Part shown: one piece after another, positions 1 to 54,161 of the stretch
How positions within the stretch are numbered: position 1 is the first letter of the stretch
How the letters are laid out: each line of letters starts with the position of its first letter
Virus record (IMG/VR): IMGVR_UViG_3300037071_003200
Span: 1-64,000 of that record
Reading direction: 5' to 3' (one strand)
DNA from: a virus
Lineage: Duplodnaviria; Heunggongvirae; Uroviricota; Caudoviricetes
DNA: 64,000 bases
Program-made: the position numbers and the translations under genes
The notes under the pieces: model-generated
What the model was told of the DNA's origin: nothing
The model's input: only the letters and a program-made list of their open reading frames with translations
The model's database searches: none

Positions 1-146
1 CCGCGGCCGCCCGACCGCCCGCCTCGCGCGGCCGCCCGACCGCGGCCCGGGCGGACCGTGCGAAGACCGCCGCGGCGGCGGTCGTCCCGGCCTCGCGGCG
101 GCGGTCGAGTCCGCCCGCGGCGGCGGCGGCCGTCCCGTACGCGGGC

Positions 147-175
147 AAAAAAAGAGGCCGCCTCGCGGCGGCCTC
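147..175 (-). terminator. Rho-independent terminator downstream of the acidic-protein gene (minus-strand transcript)
   Basis: Perfect 9-bp stem GAGGCCGCC / GGCGGCCTC (154-162 / 167-175) with loop TCGC. An A7 run at 147-153 reads as a U7 tract after the hairpin on the minus-strand transcript. Confidence 0.6.
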
Positions 176-190
176 GTTCGGTCCGACTCT

Positions 191-206
191 CCAGGCACGG
201 GACTCC
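191..206. repeat. Left arm of a 16-bp perfect inverted repeat (CCAGGCACGGGACTCC) flanking the acidic-protein gene
   Basis: Exact reverse complement of 1175-1190. The two arms bracket gene 223..1128. Confidence 0.7.
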
Positions 207-222
207 AGAACGGTCTAGCGGT

Positions 223-1128
223 CTAGCTGTCGGACTCGTCCGCGGCCTCGTCGGCCTCGTCGTCGTCCGTCGTCCCGGCCGCGAGAATCACGGCCTGGAT
301 CGTCGTCGGCCCGTGCTCTTCCGCGAGGCGGAGGACCGCCAGCGCGATGCCGACGACCGTCGTCCGCGGGACGTTGTACTCGGTCACGAGGCCGCGGAAG
401 ATCGAGTCCGTCGGCCCGTTCGCGAGTTCTACCGCGGCGGCCGATGCCGTCGCGACAGTGTCGGCCCGACGGGACTCGTCGGCCTCGGACTCGTCGGCCT
501 CGTCGGCCTCGTCGTCGTCCGCCTCGTCGTCGTCGTCGTCCGTCGTCGTCGTGCCGCTACCGCCGCCGCCCGACCGGTTAGTCGGGAAGGCCGCCTCGCA
601 CCGTGCGAGAAGGTCCTCGCGGTCGGGCGGTAGCGCGTTACCGTCGTCGTCCGTCCCGGCCTCTTCGACGGCCTCGCGGTAGACCTCGCGGACGAGGTCT
701 TCCGCCGCCGCCCGGTCCTCGTCCGTCGTCTTCGACGACAGGGACGAGAGTCCGCGGTAGAGGTAGGACAGGGACGTAACGAGCGTTCCAGGGACAAGAT
801 CGTCCCCTAGAACCTTCGCGACCGCGCCAGCGTTCTGCCAGCGGTACAACGTCCCGTTCGGCTTGCCCGGGATCATCGTCCGACCGTATTCCCTCCAGTC
901 GTCCGTCCCGATGCCCGCCGTCTTCGCGAGGCTAACGCCCGCGGCCTTCGCGGCCGCGAACTCGATCTTCGCACTGTCCAGCGCCATGCCTGCCTGGACC
1001 TCGAAGACGGCCGCCTCGCGGTCGGCCTTCGCGTAGACCTGCGCGATGCCCGACAGTGCGGACTCGATCAGGGACGCGATTCCCGCGAACGCGATCTTCG
1101 CGGCGTTCTTGTAATCGTTCTTGTTCAT
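223..1128 (-). CDS. Highly acidic protein with two poly-Asp/Glu tails (possible DNA-mimic or anti-restriction-like protein)
   Basis: 301-aa ORF with a GGAG ribosome-binding site 4 nt upstream of the ATG at 1128. Internally duplicated halves each end in a D/E tract (TTTTDDDDDEADDDEADEADESEADES and TTDDDEADEAADESDS) encoded by GAC/GAG/GCC trinucleotide repeats. Followed by terminator 147-175. Confidence 0.65.
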   Translation of the reverse strand: MNKNDYKNAAKIAFAGIASLIESALSGIAQVYAKADREAAVFEVQAGMALDSAKIEFAAAKAAGVSLAKTAGIGTDDWREYGRTMIPGKPNGTLYRWQNAGAVAKVLGDDLVPGTLVTSLSYLYRGLSSLSSKTTDEDRAAAEDLVREVYREAVEEAGTDDDGNALPPDREDLLARCEAAFPTNRSGGGGSGTTTTDDDDDEADDDEADEADESEADESRRADTVATASAAAVELANGPTDSIFRGLVTEYNVPRTTVVGIALAVLRLAEEHGPTTIQAVILAAGTTDDDEADEAADESDS

Positions 1129-1174
1129 GGGACTCCATTCGGAAGTGAGGCCGCGAAGAGGCGGCCTCGGATGA

Positions 1175-1190
1175 GGAGTCCCGTGCCTGG
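1175..1190. repeat. Right arm of the 16-bp inverted repeat (GGAGTCCCGTGCCTGG)
   Basis: Reverse complement of 191-206. Immediately preceded by hairpin GAGGCCGC-GAAGAG-GCGGCCTC (1147-1168). Confidence 0.7.
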
Positions 1191-1377
1191 ATTGTCAAAG
1201 ACCGATGATGCTGGACCCGATACGCGGCGGACTCGTTCGGCCGCCGCCGTTCTGCGATCCACTAGGGACTCTAGTCGAAGGGTCCGCCGTCGTCAAAGAG
1301 TCCCGATGAGAAGAGGCCGCCCGACCGCCTCGCGGCCCGTCGTCGAGCACGGGCGGCCCGACCGCGAGGCCGCCCGT

Positions 1378-1395
1378 CTTCTCAATATTGAGAAG
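1378..1395. promoter_or_regulatory. Perfect 18-bp palindrome CTTCTCAATATTGAGAAG
   Basis: Self-complementary about an AT-rich core. A related palindrome CTTCTCAGGACTGAGAAG occurs at 16717-16734. Confidence 0.4.
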
Positions 1396-1743
1396 AGGCC
1401 GCCGCCTCGGACGAGGGATCGCGGCCGCCCGTGCGGCGGCCGATGATCGTCGCATGAGACTAGACCCGTACCGCCTCGTCGGCCGCCTCGTCGCGGCCGC
1501 CGCGATCATCGCGGCCGCGGTCTACTGGATCACTCTGTAGACCGCCCGTCCGTCCGTGCGAGGCCGCCCGCGAGGCGGCCTCGTTCGCGGTCCGCCCGGC
1601 CGCCCGCGAGGCGGTCGGCCTCGTCCGCGAGGCCGCCGCCGCGGCCGCGAACTCGTCCGCTCCCGATGGAGGCCGCGGCCGCCGCCGGCGCGCACGCCCC
1701 TCCGCAGTACACACCAGAAATTCGAGCTCACCCTGCTGCAAAC

Positions 1744-1820
1744 TGGCACTATGGTGCCGGAATGGTGCTAGAGTGGCACCACATGGCTCCGGAAAGTGGT
1801 ACCAAAGTGGCACCAGTGCA
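1744..1820. promoter_or_regulatory. Array of TGGCAC / GTGCCA half-site palindromes (candidate operator cluster)
   Basis: TGGCAC-TATG-GTGCCG at 1744-1759, GGTGC-TAGAGTG-GCACC at 1764-1780, GTGGTACCA at 1797-1805 and GTGGCACCAGTGCA at 1808-1820. Five or more half-sites in about 80 bp directly upstream of small early genes and the two RHH genes. Confidence 0.45.
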
Positions 1821-1872
1821 TCAGCCTCCCTCACCAGCTGCTCTTCCGGCAGATACGGATTGGGCGCCGGCG

Positions 1873-1992
1873 ATGGTCTACCGGGAGCGGATGCTGGAAG
1901 ATCAGCTGCGCGCGATGCAGGCCGAGAGGGACTTCCTGCGGGGAGTGGTGACGGCGCTGGTCGAGCGCAGAGGGCCGGTGAGGCTGACGTGA
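1873..1992 (+). CDS. Small hypothetical protein (start uncertain)
   Basis: ATG at 1873 in the frame of ORF 1666..1992 (MVYRERMLEDQLRAMQAERDFLRGVVTALVERRGPVRLT). The upstream part of that ORF overlaps the operator array, so a downstream start was chosen. Confidence 0.3.
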   Translation: MVYRERMLEDQLRAMQAERDFLRGVVTALVERRGPVRLT

Positions 1993-2213
1993 CATACAGG
2001 TCGGATCCTGGTGGGTGGCGTTCAGCACGGGCGTCGGCGCGGCAGGCAGCGATGGCGCAGCTGATCCAGAGGCATCGAGAAGAATTCGATCGGCTGCACG
2101 CCGATGAGCGCGAGGCGCGGGGGTTGCCGCGTGACCTGAGCGCTTCGAGTGACGTCTCGCATCTGCGTGCACGCATCCGCGAGCTCGAGGCCGAGCTGAA
2201 GGTGTTGAGGTGA
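1989..2213 (+). CDS. Small hypothetical coiled-coil protein (start uncertain: GTG at 1989 or ATG at 2052)
   Basis: GTGA overlap with the preceding stop. The C-terminal part QLIQRHREEFDRLHADEREARG...IRELEAELKVLR looks like a real helical protein. Confidence 0.35.
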   Translation: MTYRSDPGGWRSARASARQAAMAQLIQRHREEFDRLHADEREARGLPRDLSASSDVSHLRARIRELEAELKVLR

Positions 2214-2404
2214 GCAAATCCGTGCGCCTGAAGGACTACCTGGCGGACGAGCTCGAGAAGATCGCGGCGCGCGAGAATCGGTCTCTCACGAACCTTGTGA
2301 ACCATCTTCTGGAGCAGGCGATCGAGATGGAGCGGGCGATGCGCAAGAGTGAGGAGCGGCTCAGCCAGGGGCTCTTCCTTCCGAGTCAGACGGAGGGCTC
2401 GTAG
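2210..2404 (+). CDS. Ribbon-helix-helix (Arc/MetJ/CopG-like) DNA-binding protein
   Basis: 64 aa. RLKDYLADELEKIAARENRSLTNLVNHLLEQAIE matches the RHH beta-strand plus two-helix pattern. ATGA overlap with the upstream gene. Confidence 0.7.
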   Translation: MSKSVRLKDYLADELEKIAARENRSLTNLVNHLLEQAIEMERAMRKSEERLSQGLFLPSQTEGS

Positions 2405-3180: not shown

Positions 3181-3371
3181 CGAAGCAGGCAGTCGAAGTG
3201 ACGGTCGACGAGGTGCGGCTGTTCCTATACGAGAAGCTCTTCCACGAGTACCAGGGAGAGAACGTGGAGTCTCCGCGAGCGTTCGTCGGGCTGCAGGGCG
3301 ACAAGGTCGTCCTCATGCAAACGGGCGGGGAGCCTCTGGTTGTCCTGGTGAAGACGGCGGTGATGGCGTGA
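3177..3371 (+). CDS. Hypothetical protein
   Basis: 64-aa ORF, ATGA-coupled to RtcB. Confidence 0.45.
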   Translation: MTKQAVEVTVDEVRLFLYEKLFHEYQGENVESPRAFVGLQGDKVVLMQTGGEPLVVLVKTAVMA

Positions 3372-4684
3372 GCGTCACGATTTTCGGTGAGCCCGATCCC
3401 GGTGCTGTCGCGCAGATCGAGAACGTCATGCGCGACGAGCGAGCCCAGGAAGGTGCGCTCATGGCTGACCACCACCTCGGCTACTCGATGCCGATCGGTG
3501 GCGTTGTCGCCTACCAGGACGCGATCTCTCCTTCTGGCGTCGGCTACGACATCGCCTGCGGGAACATGGCCGCGCGAACCGTCCTCACCCGCTCCGATCT
3601 CGTGGACGATCTGAAGCCGCTCATGCGTCAGATCCAGAAGAAGGTCGCCTTCGGCATGGGCCGACGAAACGACGAGCCCTACGACCACGCGCTCTTCGAC
3701 GACGAGTTGTGGAAGACCGAGGAGCTTTCGCCGATCCTGGACAAGGCGCGAGCGCAGCTGGGAACCGTCGGCTCGGGCAATCACTACGTCGACCTACTCG
3801 TCGATAGCGAGGACCGCGTCTGGGTTGCGAACCACTTCGGCTCTCGAGGCTTCGGACACACGGTCGCCACGCTGTTCATGAAGCGCGCCTACGGGCTCGC
3901 CGACGACGCTCGCTTCACCGAGACCGACGAGCCCGCCGTCCTCGACATCGGCACCTACAACGGTGACCTCTACGTCTCCGCGATGGAGCTCGCTGGCAAG
4001 TACGCCTATGCCGGTCGCGAGTACGTCATGGACCAGGTCGTGCGCGAAGTCCTCGGAACCGAGATCGACTTCTCCGTGCACAACCATCACAACTACGCCT
4101 GGCACGAAGACGATCGCTGGGTTGTGCGCAAGGGCGCCACGCCGCTCGAGCTGGAACCCGCCTTCATCGGTGGCTCGATGGGCGACGTGTCCGTGATCGT
4201 GCGAGGGAAGCCCGACGTCGGATTCGAGGATGGCCACGTGTACGGGGTGGATGACATCGGCGCACTGGGCTCTGCTCCACATGGCGCCGGTCGAGTCATG
4301 TCGCGCACGAAGGCGGCCGGGAAGATCCGGAAGATGTGGTACTGCCCGAATCGCAACTGCGACTTCGAGCCCTTCCGGGCGATGGACAACCTCGTCGCCA
4401 CCTCCGGTCTTGAGAACGGCAAGTGCCCCCGCTGCGGAATTCCGGTGCGCAAGGGCCGGATGCGCGACACCGCGGACGCGGCCATCGACTGGGACGCGGT
4501 GCGAGCCGATCTGGGCTCTCGCGGGATCGCAGTCCTTGGCGCCGGCGCCGACGAAGCGCCGGGCGTCTACAAGGACCTCACCAGCGTGATCGCCGCCCAC
4601 TCGAACATCGAGGTGCTGCACACCCTGCACCCGATCGGCGTCGTCATGGCTGGCTCCGACGTCTTCGATCCGTACAAAGACTGA
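3368..4684 (+). CDS. rtcB: RtcB-family RNA ligase (tRNA repair/splicing ligase) with an inserted zinc ribbon
   Basis: 438 aa. RtcB signatures are MADHHLGYSMPIGGVVAY, GYDIACGNMAART, HNHHNYAWHED and SAPHGAGRVMSR. A Cys4 ribbon (CPNRNCDF...KCPRCG) is inserted near the C-terminus. Confidence 0.85.
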   Translation: MSVTIFGEPDPGAVAQIENVMRDERAQEGALMADHHLGYSMPIGGVVAYQDAISPSGVGYDIACGNMAARTVLTRSDLVDDLKPLMRQIQKKVAFGMGRRNDEPYDHALFDDELWKTEELSPILDKARAQLGTVGSGNHYVDLLVDSEDRVWVANHFGSRGFGHTVATLFMKRAYGLADDARFTETDEPAVLDIGTYNGDLYVSAMELAGKYAYAGREYVMDQVVREVLGTEIDFSVHNHHNYAWHEDDRWVVRKGATPLELEPAFIGGSMGDVSVIVRGKPDVGFEDGHVYGVDDIGALGSAPHGAGRVMSRTKAAGKIRKMWYCPNRNCDFEPFRAMDNLVATSGLENGKCPRCGIPVRKGRMRDTADAAIDWDAVRADLGSRGIAVLGAGADEAPGVYKDLTSVIAAHSNIEVLHTLHPIGVVMAGSDVFDPYKD

Positions 4685-4899
4685 TGGATGCCCAGGGGCG
4701 ACTTGATTTCTACAACCGCTTCATGGAGGCCTTCTCCGAAGCGCTCGCTGGGCGACGTATTCTTGAGCTGTCCGACGACGAGCTCTACGTCCTGCAGGAC
4801 TTCCTGTGGGCCGCGACTGACGACGTCGTATCCGAATGGGCACGACGAGAGATGCGGAAGCGATCCCCGTTTCCGCCCGTAGAAAGGGAGACCCTATGA
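4684..4899 (+). CDS. Hypothetical protein
   Basis: ATG at 4684 overlaps the rtcB stop (TGATG). 71 aa. Confidence 0.45.
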   Translation: MDAQGRLDFYNRFMEAFSEALAGRRILELSDDELYVLQDFLWAATDDVVSEWARREMRKRSPFPPVERETL

Positions 4900-11189: not shown

Positions 11190-11404
11190 GCGAACAGAAC
11201 GTGTCAAAGACGAAGAACGCCTACCGCGCCGAAGGCAAGATCATCCACGTCGGCACTCCGGGAATCTTCCACTTCCCTGCATCGGGATCGAACGAGACAC
11301 GATGCGGCTTCGACATGGCGGAGGCCCGTTCAACGGATCACCCGCTCAGTGAATACGAGCCCTGCGTCGTCTGCTTCGAGGACTGGGATCGGAGCCTGCC
11401 GTGA
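11186..11404 (+). CDS. Hypothetical protein
   Basis: 72-aa ORF with a Cys-containing C-terminus (CGF...CVVCF). Confidence 0.45.
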   Translation: MSEQNVSKTKNAYRAEGKIIHVGTPGIFHFPASGSNETRCGFDMAEARSTDHPLSEYEPCVVCFEDWDRSLP

Positions 11405-11523
11405 CCACGGAACACAAACCACAGAATGTCTGCAAGCACGACGGCTACCTGGCCTCGACCCACTCGCGGCTCAAGAGCGAACTCAAGTGCATGAAGTGCG
11501 GGAAGGTCTGGAAGTCACGGTGA
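11401..11523 (+). CDS. Small zinc-ribbon peptide (40 aa)
   Basis: GTGA overlap. CKHDG...CMKCG is a two-Cys-pair ribbon. Confidence 0.3.
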   Translation: MTTEHKPQNVCKHDGYLASTHSRLKSELKCMKCGKVWKSR

Positions 11524-11609
11524 GTTCGGTCTCTTTGGTAGGCTCGCGCCGTGAAGTCGTTCCCATAGGGCCGCGCCCCTCCGATGGACTAGCTCACAGG
11601 CTGATGCTC

Positions 11610-11682
11610 GCCAGCTAGTTCAATGGTTAGAACACCTCACCTGATGTGGAGGAAATCCTTGGTTCGATTCCAGGGGCTGGCT
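11610..11682 (+). tRNA. tRNA gene, anticodon probably GAT (Ile); the anticodon stem has a bulge or mismatches
   Basis: Acceptor stem GCCAGCT/GGCTGGC pairs over 7 bp. T-arm CTTGG-TTCGATT-CCAGG is canonical. D-stem GTTC/GAAC with loop AATGGTTA. The anticodon loop reads CCTGATG, but the anticodon stem CCTCA/TGGAGG is imperfect. No encoded CCA. Confidence 0.55.
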
Positions 11683-11689
11683 CTCTCAT

Positions 11690-11758
11690 GCGGCTGCGTA
11701 CTGGGTACCGAGTCGATTCTAAACCGGCCTCGGGCGGGTTCGATCCCCGTCAGCCGCT
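11690..11758 (+). tRNA. Non-canonical tRNA-like gene with a truncated D-arm; anticodon loop reads TTCTAAA (possible CUA amber-suppressor anticodon)
   Basis: Acceptor stem GCGGCTG/CAGCCGC is perfect. T-arm GCGGG-TTCGATC-CCCGT is canonical. Putative anticodon arm GTCGA-TTCTAAA-CCGGC has a 4-bp stem plus an A.C closing pair. The D region is only about 13 nt (GTAC-TGG-GTAC). Total length 69 nt. Confidence 0.35.
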
Positions 11759-11795
11759 CTTGATGTAGTCCTGCCGTTCATCTAACCTCGGAAGC

Positions 11796-11867
11796 CGCGG
11801 GCGACTCGGTCGGAGCAGAGGGTGCGCTCATAACGCACAGAACCGGGTTCGACTCCCGGGCCCGCTA
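11796..11867 (+). tRNA. tRNA-Met (anticodon CAT)
   Basis: Anticodon arm GTGCG-CTCATAA-CGCAC is perfect with U33. T-arm CCGGG-TTCGACT-CCCGG is perfect. Acceptor stem CGCGGGC/GCCCGCT has 6 bp plus a C1.T72 mismatch. Discriminator A. Confidence 0.7.
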
Positions 11868-11871
11868 CTCG

Positions 11872-12069
11872 ATGCGAGTGTTGCGCTTCATCCATCGCTG
11901 GTTTACGAACCAGCCGCCTGCGTCGCTCGACGCGATCGTGTCGAGCGGTCGACTGACCGATGCGGAAGCTCGGTACCTGTGGGCGCTCTGTCGGAGCGGA
12001 CGCAGGACGCCGGATTGGCTTGCCGACAAGATGGTCGGTCGCAACACCCAGGAGACGGTTCCGGGCTAA
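11872..12069 (+). CDS. Hypothetical protein
   Basis: 65-aa ORF starting 5 nt after tRNA-Met. Confidence 0.3.
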   Translation: MRVLRFIHRWFTNQPPASLDAIVSSGRLTDAEARYLWALCRSGRRTPDWLADKMVGRNTQETVPG

Positions 12070-12083
12070 GCCGGGGAGGACAC

Positions 12084-12299
12084 ATGGCGACGCCCAACCG
12101 TAACGGTGGGGCAGTCGTTCCGGTCCGCCTCACTGACATCGACATCAAGATCCGGCGCCGGCGGGGCAAGGCGCTGTACGAGGCCGCGGTCGCCGACCGC
12201 GACATCGACCTCGCCATGCGCCTCGACGCGGCGATCGAGCGTCCTTCGGATCAGGTCTACTGGCTGCCTGCGACGGCGGTGCGGAAGGCCCTGCCGTGA
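12084..12299 (+). CDS. Hypothetical protein
   Basis: ATG at 12084 with ribosome-binding site GGGGAGGA. 71 aa. Confidence 0.45.
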   Translation: MATPNRNGGAVVPVRLTDIDIKIRRRRGKALYEAAVADRDIDLAMRLDAAIERPSDQVYWLPATAVRKALP

Positions 12300-13463: not shown

Positions 13464-13659
13464 CTCCTACGGTGGCACGAAGATCAAACGGCCCAGGTGG
13501 GCCATCAAAGAGCTGTGGCCCTGGGATGGGCCAGACAGGCTGTCTCTGTGGGAGCGCTGGCACGCCGATCCCAAGCGCCTCGGCCTCGAGCCCGAGCCTC
13601 TTCTATGGTGGGAGACCGACGTGGTGAGAAAGGAAGAAGAGTGGCCGCTGGCAGCGTGA
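13453..13659 (+). CDS. Hypothetical small protein overlapping the putative TerS end
   Basis: ATG at 13453 in the frame of ORF 13408..13659. MTTDSYGGTKIKRPRWAIKELWPWDG..., 68 aa. Confidence 0.3.
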   Translation: MTTDSYGGTKIKRPRWAIKELWPWDGPDRLSLWERWHADPKRLGLEPEPLLWWETDVVRKEEEWPLAA

Positions 13660-15284
13660 AAGAACGCGAGGAGATGCGCCAGGCCTTGCGCCAGGAGATC
13701 GTCGATCGCAAGGTCTCGGATGAGGCCGAGCGTCTCGGCCAGTCGTTGAGTGCCTTCGTCAGGGAGGCGTGGCCGCACGTCAAGAAGCACGAGCAGTACC
13801 GGCACAACTGGCACCTCGACGCGATCAACATTCACCTGGAGGCCGTGAGCGCGGGCGAGATCCATCGCCTGCAGATCTGGGTCCCGCCGGGTTCGATGAA
13901 GTCGCTGTCGGTGTCCGTCTTCTGGCACGCCTGGGAGTGGACGACGCGGCCGTGGCTTCGCTACTGGTCGGCCTCGTACGAGACCCGCCTGGCGGGACGT
14001 CTCTCGGCGATGGCCCGCGACCTCATGCTGGAGCGCTGGTACCAGGAGCGCTGGGGCCCGCTCTTCAAGTTCAACCGCGACGCCGAGCACTACTACGGCA
14101 ACGACCAGGGCGGCACGCGCCTGGCGACGTCACCGGACTCGTCAGGAACCGGCGAGCACGGGCACCGCATCATCATCGACGACCCGATCAACGCAAAGGA
14201 CGCCGACGCCACCTCGAAGTCGACGCTTGACACCGTGAATGGGTGGTTCGATGGCACCGTCCCCTCGCGCGGTCTCGACGGAGTCCTCTCGCCTGACGGC
14301 GATATCATCGACCACGCCCGCGTCATCATCATGCAGCGCCTGCACGAGGACGACCTCGCTGCTCACGCCCTCGAGAACGATCGCGATTACGTCGTCCTGT
14401 GCATCCCGGAGCGCTACTACGCGGGCCATCCGTTCGCTTACCGCGGACAGGGCGGGCACACCTCGACTGAGGACCTCGGCTCGACGTTCGGGCCCGGAGA
14501 TCCGCGCATCGAGGACGAGCTGCTGTGGCCGGATCGCCGTTCCGAGAAGGCATCGGATGCGCTCAAGGCCCAGCTGAAGCATCGCGCCGCGGGTCAGCTC
14601 CAGCAGATGCCCGCGCCGAAGGAAGGCCAGTCGCTCCTGCGCTCGTGGTGGCGCTTCTACGATCCGAACCTCTTCAACGACGTGAAGCGCCGCCCCCGCT
14701 GCTCGATGGTCGTTCAGTCGATCGACTGCCCGCTCAAGGACAAGCAGACGAACGACATGATCTCGATCCAGGCCTGGGGCTGCAAGGGCGCCGATCGCTA
14801 CCTGATCGACATCCGCACGTCGCACATGAGTTACTCGCAGGCCAAGCGCGCCGTCATCGAGCAGGCGAGGTACGTCCGGGCGATGTACCCGAAGGCTCGC
14901 CAGAAGATCCTCATCGAGAACGGCGGCTACGGGCCCGAGCTCATCGTCGACCTGAAGCGCATCCTTACCGGCGTCGAAAAGGTCAGCCCAGCCTCGGAGG
15001 GCGACAAGGAGATCCGCGCCGACTCGGCTGCCGACGACCTGCAGGCGGGCAACGTCTGGTTGCCGGGGATCGGCGCCGGCGCCGATACGACACTGGGCCC
15101 GGCGGGCACCGTCTCCAAGGACATCAACGACTTCATCGAGTCGTGCGCGGTCTTCCCCCACGGCAAGCACGACGACGATGTCGACGCCTGGTCGCAGGCG
15201 ATGAACTGGCTGCGCTCGCAGATCATCATTCCCGGTCGCACTGGCAGTGCCTACAAGGGGATGCGCAAGCGGGTGGCGGCATGA
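13656..15284 (+). CDS. Terminase large subunit
   Basis: GTG at 13656 (GTGA overlap); an alternative ATG lies at 13674. ATPase motifs VPPGSMKS (Walker A-like) and IIIDDP (Walker B). C-terminal RNase H-like nuclease with acidic residues (ILIENGGYG, HGKHDDDVDAW). Confidence 0.85.
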   Translation: MKEREEMRQALRQEIVDRKVSDEAERLGQSLSAFVREAWPHVKKHEQYRHNWHLDAINIHLEAVSAGEIHRLQIWVPPGSMKSLSVSVFWHAWEWTTRPWLRYWSASYETRLAGRLSAMARDLMLERWYQERWGPLFKFNRDAEHYYGNDQGGTRLATSPDSSGTGEHGHRIIIDDPINAKDADATSKSTLDTVNGWFDGTVPSRGLDGVLSPDGDIIDHARVIIMQRLHEDDLAAHALENDRDYVVLCIPERYYAGHPFAYRGQGGHTSTEDLGSTFGPGDPRIEDELLWPDRRSEKASDALKAQLKHRAAGQLQQMPAPKEGQSLLRSWWRFYDPNLFNDVKRRPRCSMVVQSIDCPLKDKQTNDMISIQAWGCKGADRYLIDIRTSHMSYSQAKRAVIEQARYVRAMYPKARQKILIENGGYGPELIVDLKRILTGVEKVSPASEGDKEIRADSAADDLQAGNVWLPGIGAGADTTLGPAGTVSKDINDFIESCAVFPHGKHDDDVDAWSQAMNWLRSQIIIPGRTGSAYKGMRKRVAA

Positions 15285-16869: not shown

Positions 16870-16943
16870 ATGCCCGCCCCGGGACTCGAACCCGGAAACC
16901 TCCGTTTCTGAGACGGAGTGCTATGCCGATTCGCTAGACGGGC
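16870..16943 (-). tRNA. tRNA gene (minus strand); anticodon loop CTCAGAA, giving anticodon CAG but a class-I short variable arm
   Basis: On the reverse complement, acceptor stem GCCCGTC/GGCGGGC (7 bp including a G.U pair), T-arm CCGGG-TTCGAGT-CCCGG perfect, anticodon stem TCCGT/ACGGA with an extra closing pair. The D-arm is poorly paired. Discriminator A. Confidence 0.55.
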
Positions 16944-16944
16944 A

Positions 16945-17014
16945 ATGGGGCCCCGAGGAATCGAACCTCGTCCTGTCGGGTTACAGCCGAGCATGCGCCA
17001 CTACACCAGGACCC
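16945..17014 (-). tRNA. tRNA gene (minus strand); anticodon loop CTGTAAC, giving anticodon GTA (Tyr-type) with a short variable arm
   Basis: On the reverse complement, acceptor stem GGGGTCC/GGGCCCC (7 bp), D-arm GTGT-AGTGGCGC-ATGC, T-arm CGAGG-TTCGATT-CCTCG perfect, discriminator A. Lies 1 nt from the neighbouring tRNA. Confidence 0.55.
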
Positions 17015-17216
17015 CGTGGGGGCTAGGGAAGGCGCAGATACAACCGGCGAACCACGGCGCGAGCGTATCGAGGAATGGGCGCCGGCGCAACCGTGGAAGC
17101 CTCCCGAAGGAGTGTCCCGTCCGCAGTTAGCGTCGGCGCCCGCATGCAGTCTAATCCGACCCGAGGGTGTATATTTACCTCTGTCCCGTTCGTAATCGAA
17201 CCGATGGAGGTTTGTG

Positions 17217-23210: not shown

Positions 23211-23406
23211 GACCCGCGAAGAGATCCTCTACGAGGAGATGTTCGGACGCCCGCCGTCCCGACTCCCCGATGATCACCCTGATGCGTGGCAGTGGGAGTA
23301 CCGCGGGGGCAAGAAGGAGTACGAGGAGCTGCAGCTGAAGCTCGGTCTCGTGAAGGACGACGGCGGGCCCGTCAAGATCGACGGCCAGGAGGAGCTGTTC
23401 GGATGA
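23191..23406 (+). CDS. Hypothetical small protein
   Basis: ATG at 23191 in the frame of ORF 23143..23406. 71 aa. Confidence 0.3.
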   Translation: MPSPRDKTREEILYEEMFGRPPSRLPDDHPDAWQWEYRGGKKEYEELQLKLGLVKDDGGPVKIDGQEELFG

Positions 23407-24110
23407 GCCTGGACATCCTCTACCTCTCGCGCAACCGACGCGAGTTCACCGAGTTCACGTTCTCGAAGCTCGTCGAGAACACGAACTGGGGTCTCGCCGA
23501 TCGTCTGATTGTCTACGACGACTCGTCGACTGACGGTGCCCTCGAGGAAATCCGATCTCGGATTGAAGACGTGCCCGTGCAGTACGAGATCCGCGAGCAC
23601 GACATGGGCTCGCCGGTCGCCGTGATGAACGACTACATCGCGTCAACCGAGTCCGAGCGCTTCGCGAAGATCGACAACGACCTCGTCGTACCGCCAGCGT
23701 GGCTCGATCACATGGTCGACGTGATGAACGAAGACGAGAATCTCGTCCTGCTGGGGATGGAGAGCCCGTTCATGGGGCCGCCACATCTCGACTGGGATGG
23801 CACCTATACATGGACGCCCTGGAAGCACATCGGCGGCGTGGGGCTCATGCGCACCGACTTCTTCCGGCAGACCGGGCCGATGGACGTCGACGGCTACCAC
23901 GGCTTCACCGGACACCAGTGGAAGTACGGTCCTCGGCGCGGCTGGATCACTCCTGACCTCATGGTCTGCCTGCTCGATCGGGCTCCGGTTGAACCCTGGC
24001 AATCGCTGTCGGAGGAGTACGCGAAGCGCAACTGGCAGCGGCGCTGGAGGACGATGCCGGTCGAGTACTCCTGCTACTGGGACTGGTTCACCGAACAGGA
24101 GGCCGCATGA
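23403..24110 (+). CDS. Family-2 (GT-A) glycosyltransferase
   Basis: ILYLSRNRREFTEFT...IVYDDSSTDG (the classic GT2 DDgStD motif) and a DxD-like KIDND. Confidence 0.7.
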   Translation: MSLDILYLSRNRREFTEFTFSKLVENTNWGLADRLIVYDDSSTDGALEEIRSRIEDVPVQYEIREHDMGSPVAVMNDYIASTESERFAKIDNDLVVPPAWLDHMVDVMNEDENLVLLGMESPFMGPPHLDWDGTYTWTPWKHIGGVGLMRTDFFRQTGPMDVDGYHGFTGHQWKYGPRRGWITPDLMVCLLDRAPVEPWQSLSEEYAKRNWQRRWRTMPVEYSCYWDWFTEQEAA

Positions 24111-25855: not shown

Positions 25856-26083
25856 GTGCCATGCGGGTGCGGTAAGAACGTCCCCCAACTCTCGGCTGAA
25901 GAAGTGGCCGCTCGTGCGGAGCGTCAGCAGATCGCCAGAGAGCAGCAGCTTGCGATGCGTGCGGAGCGCATCGCGGCGCGGGAGAAGAAGCGTGAGGCAT
26001 CGGAGCAGCTCCGGCGCGAACGCCGTGAACGTCTGCTCCAGGTTCGTGCGGAGCGTGCAGCCGTGAACAGGCAGCAGCCCTAG
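25856..26083 (+). CDS. Hypothetical basic coiled-coil protein
   Basis: 75-aa ORF rich in R/E/A. Confidence 0.4.
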   Translation: MPCGCGKNVPQLSAEEVAARAERQQIAREQQLAMRAERIAAREKKREASEQLRRERRERLLQVRAERAAVNRQQP

Positions 26084-27984
26084 TGGCAGTACCTCTTCGT
26101 CTCATCCCGCAGCGCCCACGCAGCGTCACCGCGTCCGCGGTGAAGATGACGCCGAAGACGACCTCGACGTTCCGCACGCGCAAGGGGCAGGCCTGGCAGA
26201 AGAAAGCGTTCCTCTTCTCCAAGATCATCCCCGAGCTCAACTACGCCTCGCGCTTCTACGCGAAGATGCTCACGAGGCTGCGCATCTACCCCGCCTTCCG
26301 CAATCCCTCGGACGAGACGACGCCGATCACCGAGGGCCCGCCGGTCGATCTTCTCGATCGCATCCAGGACCCCGGCGGGGGTCGCTCCGGGCTCCTCTCG
26401 TCGTACGGCCGGCTCATGTTCATCATCGGCGAGGGCTACCTCTTCGGTCGTGACCTCGACAAGCCGACCGAGCGCTGGGCCTTCGTCAACACCGAGGAGA
26501 TCTCCTTCGACGGCAAGGCGATCCTGTGGACGCCGACGTCGTCGGCCGAGCCCATCCGCTTCTCACCGTCGCAGGCCGAGGCGTACAGGATGTGGAATCC
26601 GGATCCCGAGTTCTCCGGCGAGGCCGAGTCTCCGATGCGGGCGATCATCGAGATCGCGCAGGAGCTCGACATCCTCACCAAGGCCGTCGCCTCGACGGCC
26701 GTCTCGCGCATGGTCAACGGCATCCTCAAGGTTCCGGCCGAGCTGTCCTTCGGCTCCGAGGAGCCCGGTATCGACGAAGACCCCGAGGCGAACCCGTTCC
26801 TGGCCGACTGGATCGAGCACATCATCGGGATCATCGAGAACGCCGGTTCCCCCGAAGCAGGGGCACCGTTCCTGGCCGAGGGAGCTCTGGAGTATCTCGC
26901 CGGCCTCGAGTGGATGAAGACCCATGATCCGGCGACGGACTACATGGAGCAGGCGATGCGCCGGGAGGCGATCGACCGTGCCGCGATGGGCATGGACCTT
27001 CCACCGGAGATCCTCAAGGGCATGGCCGAGGCGAACCACTGGGGCGCTCGCCAGATCATGCACGACACCTGGCGCTCCCACGGCGCCGTCGTCGCCGAGC
27101 AGTTCTGCGACGACCTCGCCGATGCGTACCTGCGCCCCGCCCTGCGGGATGCGGGCTTCGATCGCTGGCGCGAAGTGGTAGTCGCCTACGACGACTCGAA
27201 CGTCGTTGTTCCTCCCGACCGTACCGACGATGCCGACAAGGCTCACGATCGCGGTCAGGTGAACGATCCGGGCTATCGCACGATGAAGGGCATCCCGGAG
27301 TCGATGGCTCCCTCCGAAGAGGAGATGCGGATCAATCTCGCCATCCAGCTGCACGAGCCAGCCCTTCTGAAGGGCACGCGCTTCGAGATCGAGGAGCCGG
27401 AGCCCGCAGCGTTGCCGCCCGGCCCCGTCCCGACGACCGACGCGCCGCAGGATGCCGAGGAAGGGCCGCCAGCGCCGGGACCAGCCGGAACGTCTCGTCA
27501 GGAGTCTCGCGCCTCGATCGTCCAGGTCAACGGCGCCGCTTCCCTCGCGCTCATTCGTTGCCGCGAAGTCGCCGGCGCGAAGATCCGTCAGGGGATCCGC
27601 ACCAAGTCACGCGGGGCGGTAGAGCTGGGGATGATCGACGGGATTCCGAACGCCGACGTCGCCTGCACTCTCGGCGAGGACCGGATCAGGGCTCTTGGTC
27701 TTCCGCAGCCACTCGAGCTCGTTAAGTCGGGCACCGACGGCTTCTGCTCGCTGCTTCGTTCCTGGGACTTCGACGACCCTGGCGCACGGGTGCTCGCGGA
27801 AATGCTCCTTGTGTTCGCAGCGAAGTCGCTGTATGACAAGGAAGTCCCGAAGCTGCCAGCTGGGTTCCTCGCCCAGGTGGAACGCCTGAAGGAACTGACC
27901 GAGGAGAAGATCGTGAGTCAGAACAACGATTCCCTGGCGATCATGGAGGAGATGCTCGGTGGCGTCAGGATCAAGGGAGGCTGA
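26083..27984 (+). CDS. Portal protein
   Basis: 633 aa. GTG start (TAGTG overlap). Size and position after the terminase and before the head proteins fit a portal. Sequence is not low-complexity. The call is not motif-verified. Confidence 0.65.
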   Translation: MAVPLRLIPQRPRSVTASAVKMTPKTTSTFRTRKGQAWQKKAFLFSKIIPELNYASRFYAKMLTRLRIYPAFRNPSDETTPITEGPPVDLLDRIQDPGGGRSGLLSSYGRLMFIIGEGYLFGRDLDKPTERWAFVNTEEISFDGKAILWTPTSSAEPIRFSPSQAEAYRMWNPDPEFSGEAESPMRAIIEIAQELDILTKAVASTAVSRMVNGILKVPAELSFGSEEPGIDEDPEANPFLADWIEHIIGIIENAGSPEAGAPFLAEGALEYLAGLEWMKTHDPATDYMEQAMRREAIDRAAMGMDLPPEILKGMAEANHWGARQIMHDTWRSHGAVVAEQFCDDLADAYLRPALRDAGFDRWREVVVAYDDSNVVVPPDRTDDADKAHDRGQVNDPGYRTMKGIPESMAPSEEEMRINLAIQLHEPALLKGTRFEIEEPEPAALPPGPVPTTDAPQDAEEGPPAPGPAGTSRQESRASIVQVNGAASLALIRCREVAGAKIRQGIRTKSRGAVELGMIDGIPNADVACTLGEDRIRALGLPQPLELVKSGTDGFCSLLRSWDFDDPGARVLAEMLLVFAAKSLYDKEVPKLPAGFLAQVERLKELTEEKIVSQNNDSLAIMEEMLGGVRIKGG

Positions 27985-31477: not shown

Positions 31478-33289
31478 ATGGCAAAGCAGACCGAGGTGGA
31501 GTCCTTGTTCCCGGCGCTTCCGGAGAGTCTCTCCGAGTTGAGCGACGACGAGCTGGGCACGCTTCTTCAGGAGCACGAGGTCGCAGCCGACCTCATCGAC
31601 AAGGAAGACGAAGACTTCACGAGCGGCTTCGCAGGTGACGAGCTTCTCGAGCAGTACGAGGTCGGCGTCACGCAGATCGAGACCATCCGTGCGGAGCAGG
31701 AGCTTCGCGTGGAGGCTCAGCAGGAGTACCTCGCCAAGAAGGCCGAACTCGCCGAGCGCCGCAAGGCCCACGCCGAGGCCGAGGGTGAGGGAGACGACGA
31801 GGGCGACGGTGACGAGGGCGACGGCGAAGAGGCCGCACCCGAGGAGGCCGCTGCCGAGCTCGCCGCAGAGGACGACAAGGAAGAGGCAGAGGTCGAGGAG
31901 GACGAGGTAGTCGAGGAGGAGGAGACGAAGGAAGTTGTCGTCGCCGCCGCGGCCGCTCCGCCCGCACCGCGCAAGCCGCTTCGTCGGCCACCCTCCCCGT
32001 CCAGGGAGCGCATGGCGTCCGTCACGTCGCAGGGCGCTCCGCTCGTCGCAGCCGCAGGCCTCCAGGAGGTTCGCGGTGGCACGGTGATGGACCGCAAGTC
32101 GCTGGCCCAGGCCTACAAGGTCACGGCCACGCGGCGCGGTAAGCCGTCCAAGAGCAACTCCGGTGTCGAGGAGCGCATTCTCGTCGCCGCAGCGCACTTC
32201 CCGTTCCCCGAGGATCGCATCCTCGTCGCGGGCGACTACGAGGAGAACGCGGCCAAGATCGCCGCGAAGATCCCGAACTACATCCCGGGCCTGAACGGTC
32301 GGCTGCGCGGAGAGGCACTGGTCGCTTCCGGCGGTCTGTGCGCTCCGTTGGAGCCGATCTACACGATGCCGAACTTCGCATCGACGGCTCGCCCGGTGCG
32401 CGACGCCCTTCCGTCCTTCCAGGCGGATCGCGGCGGCGTCAACGTCCCGGCCGTCACCTACATCGCCGACATCGACACGGCGATCACGGTGATCGAAGAG
32501 GCCGACGACGCCCTCGGAGGCACGTTCGCCACGAAGTCCTGTCAGGACATGGACTGCCCGGCGTACACCGAGGTGCCGGTGACCATCATCAGCCACTGCC
32601 GTGAGTACGGGAACCTGAACGCGATGGCGTGGCCGGAGAAGATCGCGCACGAGAACGATCTCACGATGGCGGCCCACGCCCGGACGAGCGAGACGTACCT
32701 GCTCGACCGGATCAAGGCCCTGTCCCTCAACGTGACCCAGGCGGCGGTCGGATCGCAGATGAACGCGTTCGGCTCCCTGGTGCACGCGATCACGAAGGCA
32801 ACGGCGGGAATCCGCTTCCGGCTCCGCGCAGACGGCGGTACGCGCTTCCGGGCTCTGTTCCCGATCTGGATCGGCGACATGCTCGCCGCCGACAACGCCC
32901 TCATGAACTTCGACCGCTACCAGGCACAGGCGCAGCTCACGTCGGCACTCGAGCGGTACGGGGTCTCGGTCTCGTACTACCTCGATCCCGTCACGGGCGG
33001 CACCTCGCAGGGCTTCGCGGCCGAGACGGCGTCGGCGCTGGACGACTTCCCGGACGACGTGCAGTACGCGCTCTACGTCGAGGGGTCGTTCATCCATGTC
33101 GACTCGGGTTCGCTCGAGCTCGGACTCGTCCGTGACTCGACGCTCAACTCGACGAACGACTTCCAGCTGTTCGGGGAGTCCTTCGAGAACGTGGCACGGC
33201 TCGGGCCGGAGCAGGGAGCCCTCTGGGTCACCCAGGACGTCTGCCCGAACGGTGTCTTCCCGGCCCTCGGGACGGCACTGACCTGCTGA
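31478..33289 (+). CDS. Major capsid protein (HK97-like) with an N-terminal scaffolding/delta domain
   Basis: Strong ribosome-binding site AGAAGGAG. The first 200 aa are coiled coil followed by a poly-acidic stretch (EGEGDDEGDGDEGDGEE). The remainder is non-repetitive and includes ...ASGGLCAPLEPIY... 603 aa. Confidence 0.8.
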   Translation: MAKQTEVESLFPALPESLSELSDDELGTLLQEHEVAADLIDKEDEDFTSGFAGDELLEQYEVGVTQIETIRAEQELRVEAQQEYLAKKAELAERRKAHAEAEGEGDDEGDGDEGDGEEAAPEEAAAELAAEDDKEEAEVEEDEVVEEEETKEVVVAAAAAPPAPRKPLRRPPSPSRERMASVTSQGAPLVAAAGLQEVRGGTVMDRKSLAQAYKVTATRRGKPSKSNSGVEERILVAAAHFPFPEDRILVAGDYEENAAKIAAKIPNYIPGLNGRLRGEALVASGGLCAPLEPIYTMPNFASTARPVRDALPSFQADRGGVNVPAVTYIADIDTAITVIEEADDALGGTFATKSCQDMDCPAYTEVPVTIISHCREYGNLNAMAWPEKIAHENDLTMAAHARTSETYLLDRIKALSLNVTQAAVGSQMNAFGSLVHAITKATAGIRFRLRADGGTRFRALFPIWIGDMLAADNALMNFDRYQAQAQLTSALERYGVSVSYYLDPVTGGTSQGFAAETASALDDFPDDVQYALYVEGSFIHVDSGSLELGLVRDSTLNSTNDFQLFGESFENVARLGPEQGALWVTQDVCPNGVFPALGTALTC

Positions 33290-34982: not shown

Positions 34983-39701
<4,719 letters not shown>

Positions 39702-39711
39702 GAGCGCCCTG

Positions 39712-41406
39712 ATGAACCTCGTCAAACTCGCGGAGACACCGACCACGATCACGCTCGGCTGGACACCGCCAGCAGGTGTCGGCGGCTACGTCTTCTACGC
39801 GAACGGCGTGGCCGTCTCGACGGCCTCTCCGAACCTCAAGGACGGCACCCCGCGCGACTCGGTGAAGTTCTCCAAGACGACGCCAGGCCCGCCCTTCCAG
39901 GTCGCCGCGGTGTGCAGGCAGGGCGGAGTCATCGTGCTCGAGCAAGCGACGTACTCGGAGGCTCCTCCGCCATCCGTGATTCCGAAGTACGTGGCCGACT
40001 TCGAGACCGGCGACTTCTCGCAGGTGCTCTCCCTCCAGCAGATCACGGCTGGGCGCATGAGCGTCCTTACCTCCGGCGCTTTGGAGGGCACGCGCTCGGC
40101 TCTCGTTCGTAATGAGTTCTCCGACTACCCCGTGGCGCAGGGGCAGCGCACGGAGATGGTCACGGACGACATCAACAGTCTCATCGGCGTGAGTGGCTCG
40201 ATGCAGGGGCGCGAGACGTGGTGCGAGTGGAAAGAGAAGTTGCTGCCGGGCTTCGAGATCTCGCCTGCCTGGTGCATCATCCACCAGTGGCACGGCGGCA
40301 CTGGTTCGCCCGTGTTCGCGATCGAGGCCAACGGCCCTGCGCCCGGCACTCTCAACTGCGTGATCCGTGGAGGCCCGGCCAACGGCAACTACCGCATCCA
40401 TGAGATCGCGGACCCCGTTCCGATCAACACGCTCCTGCACTTCCGAGCGTACCGTCGGTGGGATACGGGGCCGGGCGGTCGAACGAAGGTGTGGCTGAAC
40501 GGGACTCTGGTCGTCGACGACACCGGCCCGAATCTCTACGTCGGCGGTGAGTCGGCGGCGTATCAGAAGTGCGGCATCTACCGCTCCCATGTGACGACTC
40601 CCGGCGTCGAGTCGCAACTGCTCTACGACGGCATCCGCTGGTACGACGCAGACCCAGGCTGGACGAATGCACCTCCAGTCCCGCCAACCGGAATCCTGAT
40701 CTGGAACGGCGATCTCGATACCGGCGACGAGTCGCAGTACGACACCTACATCCGAAACGCGCCCGACCGCTGGCGCGTGACGACGCAGGACGGCGCGGTG
40801 ACGCCGAGGCAGGGCACGCACATGGCCCGCGTCGAGTGTCGGCAGGGCGAGGCCGCGAGCTGGGGAGCGAGCCTGAGCGCAACGCTCGCGCTGCGCAACG
40901 GCCTGCCCTACGGCTTCGACAAGGCGAACAAGGACGGCTACCTCGCGTGGTCGGCCTGGATCCCGTCCGACTATCCGTGGTCAGATCCGGGCAAGCACTC
41001 CGACTTCATGGAGTGGCACGGCGTTGGCGGGATGGATCAAGCGCCCGTCCACTGGGGCATCATCGCGCAGACGGGCCGCTTCTACATCGACCTGCACCGT
41101 GATGTCGCCGGGTACACGCCGGTGTTCCAGCCGCAGTTCGAGAAACTGTCCGATCCGGGCATGGCGAACACCTGGCACGACTACGTCGTGCGCGTCCTGT
41201 GGAGTCAAGGCCCAGACGGGCGCTTCCAGTTCTGGAGGGACGGAGACTTGAAGCACGACTACACCGGACCGACCGCGCCGAAGTCGGGCGAGGGGTTGAA
41301 GCTCCAGATGGGGATCTACTGCCGCAACGGTCCGCCTGCGTCGAAGCACATCTACCTCGACGAGATCAAGCTCGGGACGACGCGCGAGATCGTCACGCCG
41401 GGCTAA
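39712..41406 (+). CDS. Fibre/depolymerase-like protein: N-terminal FN3-like domain plus two tandem jelly-roll (alginate-lyase-2 / concanavalin-like) domains
   Basis: TITLGWTPPAGVGGYVFYANGVAV is FN3-like. Two repeats, each with W-x-W-H-G...G (IIHQWHGGTG and FMEWHGVGG) and ...K-x-G-I-Y-R (QKCGIYR and QMGIYCR), resemble the PL7/alginate-lyase-2 QIH and YFKAGVY motifs. Confidence 0.55.
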   Translation: MNLVKLAETPTTITLGWTPPAGVGGYVFYANGVAVSTASPNLKDGTPRDSVKFSKTTPGPPFQVAAVCRQGGVIVLEQATYSEAPPPSVIPKYVADFETGDFSQVLSLQQITAGRMSVLTSGALEGTRSALVRNEFSDYPVAQGQRTEMVTDDINSLIGVSGSMQGRETWCEWKEKLLPGFEISPAWCIIHQWHGGTGSPVFAIEANGPAPGTLNCVIRGGPANGNYRIHEIADPVPINTLLHFRAYRRWDTGPGGRTKVWLNGTLVVDDTGPNLYVGGESAAYQKCGIYRSHVTTPGVESQLLYDGIRWYDADPGWTNAPPVPPTGILIWNGDLDTGDESQYDTYIRNAPDRWRVTTQDGAVTPRQGTHMARVECRQGEAASWGASLSATLALRNGLPYGFDKANKDGYLAWSAWIPSDYPWSDPGKHSDFMEWHGVGGMDQAPVHWGIIAQTGRFYIDLHRDVAGYTPVFQPQFEKLSDPGMANTWHDYVVRVLWSQGPDGRFQFWRDGDLKHDYTGPTAPKSGEGLKLQMGIYCRNGPPASKHIYLDEIKLGTTREIVTPG

Positions 41407-49079: not shown

Positions 49080-49357
49080 CCGAGCTTCGCGAGACTGATG
49101 GAGTCCCGATCTGGCTCCCGAATCACCAGGAGCCGCATCTGGTGAAGAGAGAGCGCCGGGCCTACGACTCAGAGGACGACGGCGGTCAGGCGAAGGCGCT
49201 GATCGAGACGGGCCTCTTCGAGACCGGGTCAGGTTTCGTGTTCCGCTGCCCGCTGTGTGGGCGTCAGGAGCGAAACGACCAGAGGATGGAGCCCATGTGC
49301 ACGGGGCCGGGTTGGACGGACGATCACCCGCCCGAAGTAATGGTCTGCGTGGCGTGA
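49076..49357 (+). CDS. Zinc-ribbon protein
   Basis: ATG at 49076 (ATGA). FRCPLCGRQ...MCTGPG. 93 aa. Confidence 0.4.
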   Translation: MTELRETDGVPIWLPNHQEPHLVKRERRAYDSEDDGGQAKALIETGLFETGSGFVFRCPLCGRQERNDQRMEPMCTGPGWTDDHPPEVMVCVA

Positions 49358-53903: not shown

Positions 53904-54161
53904 ATGACGCTCAACCAGTTCCTCGATGCTGCCTACGCCCTGCTGGTCGATGAGTACCGGCGTCTCGGCTCGGGCCTGGTCGAGGCGCTTGATCGGACCC
54001 GCGAGTACGCCGCGGGGTATCGCATCGAACCGCTTACCGCCAGCGGTAACGAGGGGGCAGCCACGCCAGTCCGCAAGCAGCCTGATCTCACTCCCGAAGA
54101 GCTCGAGAACGAGAGGATGCTGGCCGCGTTCGAGTCGATGATGGGTGATGTGAAGTTCTGA
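53904..54161 (+). CDS. Second tail assembly chaperone ORF (T-like; may be expressed as a frameshift fusion)
   Basis: 85 aa in the -1 frame relative to the previous gene. That frame is open back to about 53760. Confidence 0.45.
   Translation: MTLNQFLDAAYALLVDEYRRLGSGLVEALDRTREYAAGYRIEPLTASGNEGAATPVRKQPDLTPEELENERMLAAFESMMGDVKF

Follow-up and report, generated by a model that had tools for sequence, protein, structure and literature searches.

Here, I show that positions 11690-11758 of a genome segment of a tailed soil phage (Caudoviricetes) hold a real, conserved and structured gene of the tRNA type which, to judge from the sequences compared, is maintained by selection. The segment comprises positions 1 to 64,000 of the IMG/VR record IMGVR_UViG_3300037071_003200 (GC content ~64%), and this whole stretch is referred to as the window. 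The gene, 69 nt long and on the plus strand, bears the anticodon CUA, complementary to UAG, and is hereafter called the CUA gene. An earlier note on this DNA had listed it as a non-canonical tRNA-like gene, a description now borne out by conserved, covarying homologs. The CUA gene is a phage suppressor tRNA in kind, which is known, and a structural variant of that kind, which is new; its function is probably amber suppression, with glycine as the likely amino acid inserted.

From 5' to 3' the gene reads GCGGCUG-C-GUAC-UGG-GUAC-C-GAGUCGA-UUCUAAA-CCGGCCUC-GG-GCGGG-UUCGAUC-CCCGU-CAGCCGC-U, the terminal CCA not being encoded. The acceptor stem, correctly described before as perfect, pairs GCGGCUG (11690-11696) with CAGCCGC (11751-11757) in seven Watson-Crick pairs out of seven, invariant in the four known copies, and is followed by the discriminator U73 (11758), which is likewise U in all four. 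Canonical tRNAs have two connector nucleotides between acceptor stem and D-arm (PMC7609411); here there is a single one (11697), C in the window and U, A and A in the homologs (alignment A4, RNAalifold). In the D-arm (11698-11708), GUAC (11698-11701) pairs with GUAC (11705-11708) around the loop UGG (11702-11704). The anticodon arm (11709-11733) is built on a 7-bp helix of 11710-11716 with 11724-11731, interrupted by one bulged base (11728 or 11729); with a further, optional pair proposed by RNAalifold, the invariant C:G (11709:11732), the helix is 8 bp long. It carries the 7-nt loop UUCUAAA (11717-11723), in which U33 (11718) precedes the anticodon CUA (11719-11721) and A37 and A38 (11722-11723) follow it. 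The variable region is reduced to 1-2 nt, namely G11733, plus G11732 if the extra pair is absent, and leads into the T-arm GCGGG-UUCGAUC-CCCGU (11734-11750), in which, as noted earlier, a canonical T-loop is closed by four Watson-Crick pairs and a G.U pair; the latter, the first of the arm, is G.A in two of the homologs (L020 and L162).

Three homologs are found in related metagenomic loci, namely L015 (4828-4896, in the same place, between a GAU and a Met tRNA), L020 (4728-4798, minus strand) and L162 (9314-9383, minus strand). They are 80-93% identical and all have CUA in a YUCUAAA loop, so that the placement of CUA at positions 34-36, flanked by U33 and A37, given in the earlier note holds in every alignment and every homolog. 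In the four-copy alignment 94.6% of the cells are paired and five pairs (seven cells) show double-sided changes. The covariation score of this compact fold was reached by none of 500 shuffles, controls with slid partners gave at most one compensatory pair, and RNAalifold yields the same helices without a supplied structure. The D-stem covaries in two of its four pairs (GUAC/GUAC, GCGC/GCGC, GCAC/GUGC) with all of its cells paired, while its loop varies in length (3, 3, 5 and 4 nt) around an invariant GG. The anticodon helix contributes three pairs with double-sided changes; its closing pair is A.C in the window and L015, C-G in L020 and U.G in L162, and the bulged base on its 3' strand is C, A, C and G across the four copies. 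The compact cloverleaf is, moreover, the minimum free energy (MFE) fold of the single sequence for L020 and L162.

The four-copy comparison thus supports the compact cloverleaf and indicates that the D-arm is no degenerate stub. It had been taken to be truncated, yet behind a single connector it consists of a conserved stem of 4 bp and a GG-containing loop of 3-5 nt. The anticodon stem proposed with it, GTCGA/CCGGC, closes with an A.C mismatch and gives way to a longer helix of 7-8 bp with one bulge. Folded in that (ARAGORN-style) way, the alignment has two compensatory pairs instead of the five of the compact fold, and 62 of 500 shuffles attain its covariation score of 0.108.

Judged from its own sequence alone, the candidate is suggestive yet unproven, and it is the comparison that lifts it above chance. 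ARAGORN at default settings and Rfam at its gathering thresholds make no call at 11690-11758. At 90% thresholds ARAGORN does call a tRNA(cta) at 11690-11759, although in such DNA this setting yields a spurious call every 10 kb or so and is weak proof by itself. In the E-value mode of Rfam the window copy is matched by the tRNA-Sec model only (18.5 bits, E = 0.38), which aligns CUA with the anticodon, where ARAGORN also puts it. The tRNA-Sec model is the best match of the Rfam clan for the window copy and the homologs alike (18.5-28.2 bits); the general tRNA model, RF00005 (gathering threshold 29 bits), matches neither the window copy nor any homolog, even in E-value mode. Covariance models, the check proposed in the earlier note, thus give a divided answer, in that the general tRNA model rejects the fold but no model puts the anticodon elsewhere. 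The single-sequence fold of the window copy is no better than that of shuffles (z = -1.15) and its MFE structure is not a cloverleaf; fold energy was dropped as a criterion because the comparative evidence overrides it.

All four copies lack the two connectors, the 7-11-nt D-loop, the 5-bp anticodon stem and the 4-5-nt variable loop of canonical tRNAs. They keep the 7-bp acceptor stem, the D-loop GG, a GTTCRANNC-type T-loop with UUCGA, a 7-nt anticodon loop with U33 and a purine at 37 (A37A38), and a location inside a tRNA array; CUA itself, in its 7-nt loop as in amber suppressors, is invariant in the window, L015, L020 and L162.

Might the gene nevertheless be a passenger, neutral or in decay, that was once a tRNA-Gly or a suppressor and now hitch-hikes with its tRNA cassette? 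The failure of default tools on the window copy, its 3-nt D-loop and A.C closing pair, its unremarkable fold energy and the sporadic presence of the element in the clade would all fit such decay. Two helices with compensatory changes would not, nor would the pattern of conservation; between the window and L015 the gene is 93% identical and the DNA around it ~83%, and the five differences between these two copies are all structurally neutral, concerning either unpaired positions (the connector base, the base at position 32, the bulge and a T-loop base) or a change from U.G to C-G. CUA, GG and the T-loop have been kept in four lineages, and the L020 and L162 copies are well-formed enough to be called tRNA(cta) by ARAGORN at default settings. 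Neutral decay is, on balance, an unlikely explanation.

The family can be recognised with a covariance model, R1, built from three copies. It scores the members at 82-96 bits (94.1 bits for the window copy), including the L162 copy, which was kept out of the building; the other tRNAs of the window score 23-27 bits, canonical tRNA-Gly sharing the top half reaches 36-47 bits and tRNAs of other kinds at most 35 bits, the next-best score anywhere being 47. Run over 100 loci containing the tRNA-Gly 3' half, R1 found no compact-core member with a different anticodon. The element was not found in the readable stretches of the related loci L017, L018, L021, L022 and L160-L166 (other than the carrier L162); in those non-carriers whose sequence covers the upstream slot and yields a tRNA call, the Met tRNA stands there alone. 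A scan of IMG/VR for the exact sequence found nothing. A looser pattern scan (CUA together with this T-arm) gave 16 matches, which were set aside as ordinary full-size phage suppressor tRNAs of other families and which show that suppressor tRNAs are common in phages. As a separate observation, a 182-kb IMG/VR contig of an unrelated large phage (L025) has at 1085-1158 (plus strand) a CUA tRNA that shares the tRNA-Gly-like T-arm (GCGGG...CCCGU) and U73. Its D-stem is unusual, with 5 bp, its anticodon stem closes with a C.A mismatch, and at 34 bits it is the best match of R1 outside the family.

The top half of the CUA gene points to glycine. A metagenome scan for its 3' half, from the T-arm through the 3' acceptor strand to U73, which set no condition on the anticodon, returned canonical tRNA-Gly in 105 of the 120 matches listed (89 with CCC, 9 with UCC and 7 with GCC); two more were irregular and 13 had no callable tRNA, and no other amino-acid identity occurred among the 120. 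The 5' strand GCGGYUG is present in 106 of them. Both acceptor strands and U73 of the CUA gene are identical to those of bacterial tRNA-Gly; the last 25 nt of the L015 copy are identical to the commonest tRNA-Gly(CCC) among the matches listed, from which the window copy differs at one T-loop base. Because the 3' half was found only in tRNA-Gly among these matches, the gene is best described as the top half of a bacterial tRNA-Gly on a novel bottom half.

A resemblance confined to the 3' end could also arise if the phage carried an attP-type integration site copying the 3' end of a host tRNA-Gly gene. The match of the last 25 nt is what such a site would show, and several of the 13 uncallable matches listed do hold only the 3' part of tRNA-Gly, resembling duplicated att sites. 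The CUA gene, however, has a complete fold, in which the 5' acceptor strand matches and the D and anticodon helices covary, it sits in a tRNA array and moves with a partner tRNA, and Pfam and PHROG scans of all large open reading frames (ORFs) of the window revealed no integrase (nor any aminoacyl-tRNA synthetase or release factor). An att site is, therefore, a most improbable explanation.

The reading that is modestly favoured here, by little more than an even chance, is that the CUA gene specifies a tRNA charged by the host, most likely by glycyl-tRNA synthetase (GlyRS), that allows partial read-through of UAG in competition with release factor 1. It would be transcribed together with the array and cut out by RNase P and 3' processing, CCA would be added by the host enzyme (none being encoded), and the charged tRNA would then compete with release factor 1 at UAG, with partial read-through as the outcome. 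The determinants recognised by GlyRS are G1-C72, C2-G71, U73 and purine4:pyrimidine69, plus C35 and C36 in the anticodon (PMC9976931, PMC10464925). GlyRS is named as the most likely synthetase because the acceptor-stem determinants (G1-C72, C2-G71, U73 and purine4:pyrimidine69) are all present, and glycine is only the best guess for the amino acid carried. An amber-suppressor tRNA-Gly has served in vivo to map glycine identity (McClain 1991, as far as its citation in PMC9976931 goes), which implies that such a tRNA works as a suppressor. Since TAG ends genes of the phage itself in the ordinary way, suppression probably occurs at a low level or concerns targets that were not located, rather than being part of a reassigned code. 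The reading of UAG as glycine is not known from any natural code.

Several points weigh against this reading. C35 and C36, which are major determinants of GlyRS, are absent from the anticodon (C34 U35 A36), and one GlyRS requires the complete L-shape and charges a substrate lacking the D-arm only marginally (PMC10464925). The anticodon helix exceeds by 2-3 bp that of every characterised translating tRNA with which it was compared, so that the fit of a bulged helix of 7-8 bp to the ribosome is in doubt. The covariation comes from four sequences of one clade. The element is dispensable, for it is absent from several close relatives. Lastly, the window genome shows no adaptation to a suppressor, because TAG is a normal stop in it and the in-frame extension to the next stop is no shorter after TAG (median 29 codons) than after TGA (31 codons); a scan of reading frames and of GC content at third codon positions (GC3) found no in-frame TAG inside genes in the 64-kb window or in the loci of the relatives.

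TAG usage was followed on a gene map based on GC3. Of 67 plus-strand genes, 11 (~16%) end in TAG, 54 in TGA and two in TAA, those ending in TAG including the tape-measure and fibre genes; both examples of TAG stops given in the earlier note, at 39699-39701 (fibre) and 26081-26083, are correct. Its suggestion that the tRNA might serve a recoding purpose fared less well, as no in-frame TAG, TAG depletion or back-up stops were found. The traits of recoded phages, namely in-frame TAG in conserved genes and rarity of TAG as a stop, are thus lacking in the window. An all-against-all tblastn comparison of the window and 12 related loci showed no TAG aligned within a conserved protein; the stops that did fall in alignments belonged to off-frame pseudo-ORFs or lay upstream of start codons, and were discarded. 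Only two plus-strand TAGs have a convincing coding signal on both sides and both were rejected, the one at 7263 being a stop directly followed by the ATG of the next gene, and the one at 12942 having a frame relation that is not conserved in L015. A further candidate, at 30921, proved to be a GC3 echo of the opposite strand and not protein-like. TAG stops number 3 of 56 in carriers of the element and 9 of 65 in non-carriers, a difference which is not significant (p = 0.14).

The window makes up ~64 kb of a genome of ~104 kb, and TAG-recoded genes read in a code-15-like manner might lie in the ~40 kb outside it. Phage suppressor tRNAs are strongly tied to recoding, and recoded genes can be confined to one module (Borges et al.). 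In published recoded phages, structural and lysis genes are the recoded classes; the structural genes of the window, and a candidate peptidoglycan-hydrolase gene in it (with M23 and peptidoglycan-binding domains), are not recoded. TAG is, besides, a frequent true stop here, and the published route to recoding starts with low GC and rare TAG (Borges et al.), not with a GC content of 64%. A recoded module beyond the window is, then, quite improbable.

The alternative that deserves most attention, although it too is unlikely, is that the RNA acts outside translation as a tRNA mimic, a decoy or sponge titrating a tRNA-directed factor of the host, be it a toxin, a nuclease or a modification enzyme. 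The top half or the anticodon loop would serve as bait, and the stop anticodon would bar the RNA from decoding sense codons. A strictly conserved top half on a rebuilt bottom half would suit such a role, as would an anticodon helix longer than in known translating tRNAs and the lack of TAG target genes in the window and the relatives' loci; U73 and G71 together are the recognition signature of the tRNA-Gly-directed toxin TacT (PMC9976931), and an RtcB-like tRNA ligase encoded by the phage hints at a conflict over tRNAs. On the other hand, the anticodon loop has retained all that marks an efficient amber suppressor (U33, CUA and A37A38), which would be superfluous for a top-half decoy, and no such decoy is documented in the literature searched.

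The CUA gene is the middle member of an array, lying 7 nt 3' of a tRNA at 11610-11682 and 37 nt 5' of another at 11796-11868 (ARAGORN). The former, on the plus strand and with the anticodon GAU, is its obligate partner, the two being kept together in L015 (GAU tRNA at 4748-4820), L020 (4800-4872, minus strand) and L162 (9387-9453, minus strand). That the neighbouring tRNAs are odd, as had been remarked before, is confirmed. The GAU tRNA reaches 39.2 bits with the Rfam tRNA model and has a bulged A in its anticodon stem. It is called Ile, and it has one connector nucleotide and G37 (C37 in L015); tRNAs reading AUN codons have A37. Its acceptor set (G1-C72, C2-G71 and U73) is not Ile-like, and its amino-acid identity is doubtful on these sequence grounds. 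A scan for the body of the GAU partner returned four identical 3' fragments only and was discarded as uninformative.

A conserved leader of ~75 nt (11535-11609, plus strand) travels with the tRNA pair and is kept even in L020, where pair and leader are inverted in an intergenic slot downstream of the terminase gene, the slot which in the window is occupied by a Leu/Tyr tRNA pair. L162 likewise has the pair downstream of the terminase gene and on the minus strand, in a slot that is unconfirmed because the contig ends just beyond. Given the inversion into a different slot in L020, the GAU and CUA genes with their leader appear to behave as a mobile cassette shared between two intergenic slots. 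The leader, which is possibly the promoter or leader of the cassette, has no match in Rfam (no HDV-like or theta ribozyme) and shows no covariation; a scan of 11300-12100 for a sigma-70 promoter and an intrinsic terminator found neither.

If the cassette is taken as a unit, a wider reading suggests itself, namely that it is a mistranslation device borne by the phage, in which a Gly-charged tRNA would read UAG while the GAU partner, whose acceptor set is of the same glycine type, would be charged independently of its anticodon, both altering decoding on purpose in the infected cell. This is a doubtful proposition; were it true, the compact core might uncouple charging from anticodon recognition, or evade tRNA-directed defences of the host.

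The third gene of the array, tRNA-Met(CAU) (11796-11868, plus strand), is the resident of this slot throughout the clade; it is present in all relatives examined and is the sole tRNA conserved across the phage clade. It remains below the Rfam tRNA threshold (24.6 bits with the tRNA-Sec model), and its acceptor/T junction looks irregular, with six clean acceptor pairs. Further downstream, tRNA-Leu(CAG) and tRNA-Tyr(GUA) (16870-17015) lie on the minus strand, opposite to nearly all genes; they reach 45-49 bits with the Rfam tRNA model and have short variable loops, that is, class-I bodies, again as remarked before. Bacterial Leu and Tyr tRNAs normally have long variable loops. A class-I tRNA-Leu(CAA) is, all the same, known in Streptomyces coelicolor (PMC6614811).

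The phage itself belongs to a clade of high-GC phages of roughly 104 kb. PHROG matches in the window identify the large terminase (13497-15284), portal (26083-27984), major head protein (31478-33289), collagen-like fibre (34983-39701) and tape-measure protein (54161-58375). Metagenomic relatives have terminases 60-100% identical, some on contigs of ~104 kb, and one locus, L023, is the same phage as that of the window; relatives retrieved through the terminase from IMG/VR and GTDB are at most 57% identical and lack tRNAs in this region. Among 50,697 records of cultured phages, DNA searches for near and distant matches found neither a homolog of the CUA element nor a close relative of the window phage. 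The host is likely actinobacterial, since the capsid protein matches actinobacteriophages only, at no more than 35% identity.

Upstream of the array, the phage has an RtcB-like tRNA/RNA ligase gene (3368-4684, plus strand; PHROG_1075, E = 2e-72), a sign that cleaved tRNAs may be repaired in the course of infection. The left end of the window (1-2300) has a higher GC content (70%), and its clearest gene (223-1128) is on the minus strand; neither this ORF nor the minus-strand ORF at 1460-2305 has a match in Pfam, and the region, being unlike the plus-strand phage genes downstream, may be a different module. Glycosyltransferase genes are several in the clade, relatives add methyltransferase and PIG-L genes, and the fibre gene is adjoined by that of a protein with a polysaccharide-lyase domain. 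Together these genes (in the window at 23286-24110, 49255-50481 and 39712-41406, as well as in the L015-L022 loci) make up a repertoire for sugar modification that is unusually rich for a phage.

The CUA gene is of interest on several counts. It is a concrete phage stop-codon tRNA missed by default ARAGORN and by the Rfam tRNA model, and the family model can now be used to seek more of them; its architecture bears on how far the core of a tRNA can be remodelled and still be selected; and it is a possible new natural scaffold for the engineering of orthogonal tRNAs. A CUA tRNA in a phage with 64% GC and ordinary TAG stops does not fit the route to recoding through low GC and TAG depletion, so that either the acquisition of a suppressor precedes genomic adaptation, or such tRNAs serve a role other than recoding.

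Among known systems, the closest in architecture are tRNA-Pyl, the archaeal and bacterial pyrrolysine tRNA encoded by pylT, and mammalian mitochondrial tRNA-Ser(UCN). The discriminator of tRNA-Pyl is G73, and the tRNA-Pyl of M. barkeri is also 69 nt long without CCA. The likeness of tRNA-Pyl to the CUA gene extends to the CUA anticodon, 0-1 connector nucleotides, a tiny D-loop (4-5 nt), an elongated anticodon stem and a very short, 3-nt variable loop, and in one class, that of Methanomassiliicoccales, the anticodon stem has an unpaired base (PMC7609411). Yet the anticodon helix is of 7-8 bp in the CUA gene versus 6 in tRNA-Pyl, and the variable region is of 1-2 nt; the CUA gene keeps G18G19 and UUCGA, both of which classical tRNA-Pyl lacks (PMC7609411), and the large ORFs of the window yielded no pyrrolysyl-tRNA synthetase, nor indeed any other synthetase-like ORF. 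That the gene might be a pylT is effectively refuted by U73, found in all four copies, together with the tRNA-Gly acceptor stem and T-arm, and the CUA gene is not a member of the tRNA-Pyl family.

Mitochondrial tRNA-Ser(UCN) likewise has one connector, a small D-loop, an extended anticodon stem and a 3-nt variable loop; like the CUA gene it keeps GG and T-psi-C, and it is still L-shaped (PMC7609411). It differs in being organellar, in reading sense codons, in its unbulged 6-bp anticodon stem and in its unrelated sequence. Both of these tRNAs function in translation despite their compact architecture (PMC7609411). Bacterial tRNA-Gly (mostly CCC) shares GCGGCUG, the T-arm, the 3' acceptor strand and U73 with the CUA gene, and differs from it entirely in the D-arm and the anticodon arm, as well as in the anticodon, NCC versus CUA. 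The allo-tRNAs, or 8/4 and 9/3 tRNAs, are non-canonical cloverleaves of soil bacteria and their phages, some of which carry nonsense or mismatched anticodons and some of which are active in translation (Mukai et al.); whereas they remodel the acceptor/T branch and have long variable arms, the CUA gene has a canonical acceptor/T branch (7/5, or 7/4) and remodels the D/anticodon half.

A literature search of incomplete coverage, and hence weak evidence of novelty, retrieved no description of such a tRNA. With the suppressors of recoded gut phages (crAss-like, Lak and other phages; Borges et al.) the CUA gene shares a phage CUA tRNA placed in a tRNA cluster and dependent on host synthetases. Those phages have low GC and depleted TAG, with many in-frame TAGs read as Gln (Borges et al.), in contrast to the 64% GC of the window phage, its use of TAG as a normal stop, the lack of any recoded gene found in it, and a tRNA body of glycine rather than glutamine type. 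Suppressor tRNAs were found in only 35-40% of recoded phages, and undetected non-canonical ones were suspected by the authors (Borges et al.). It is with the phage suppressor tRNAs that the CUA gene would belong in function.

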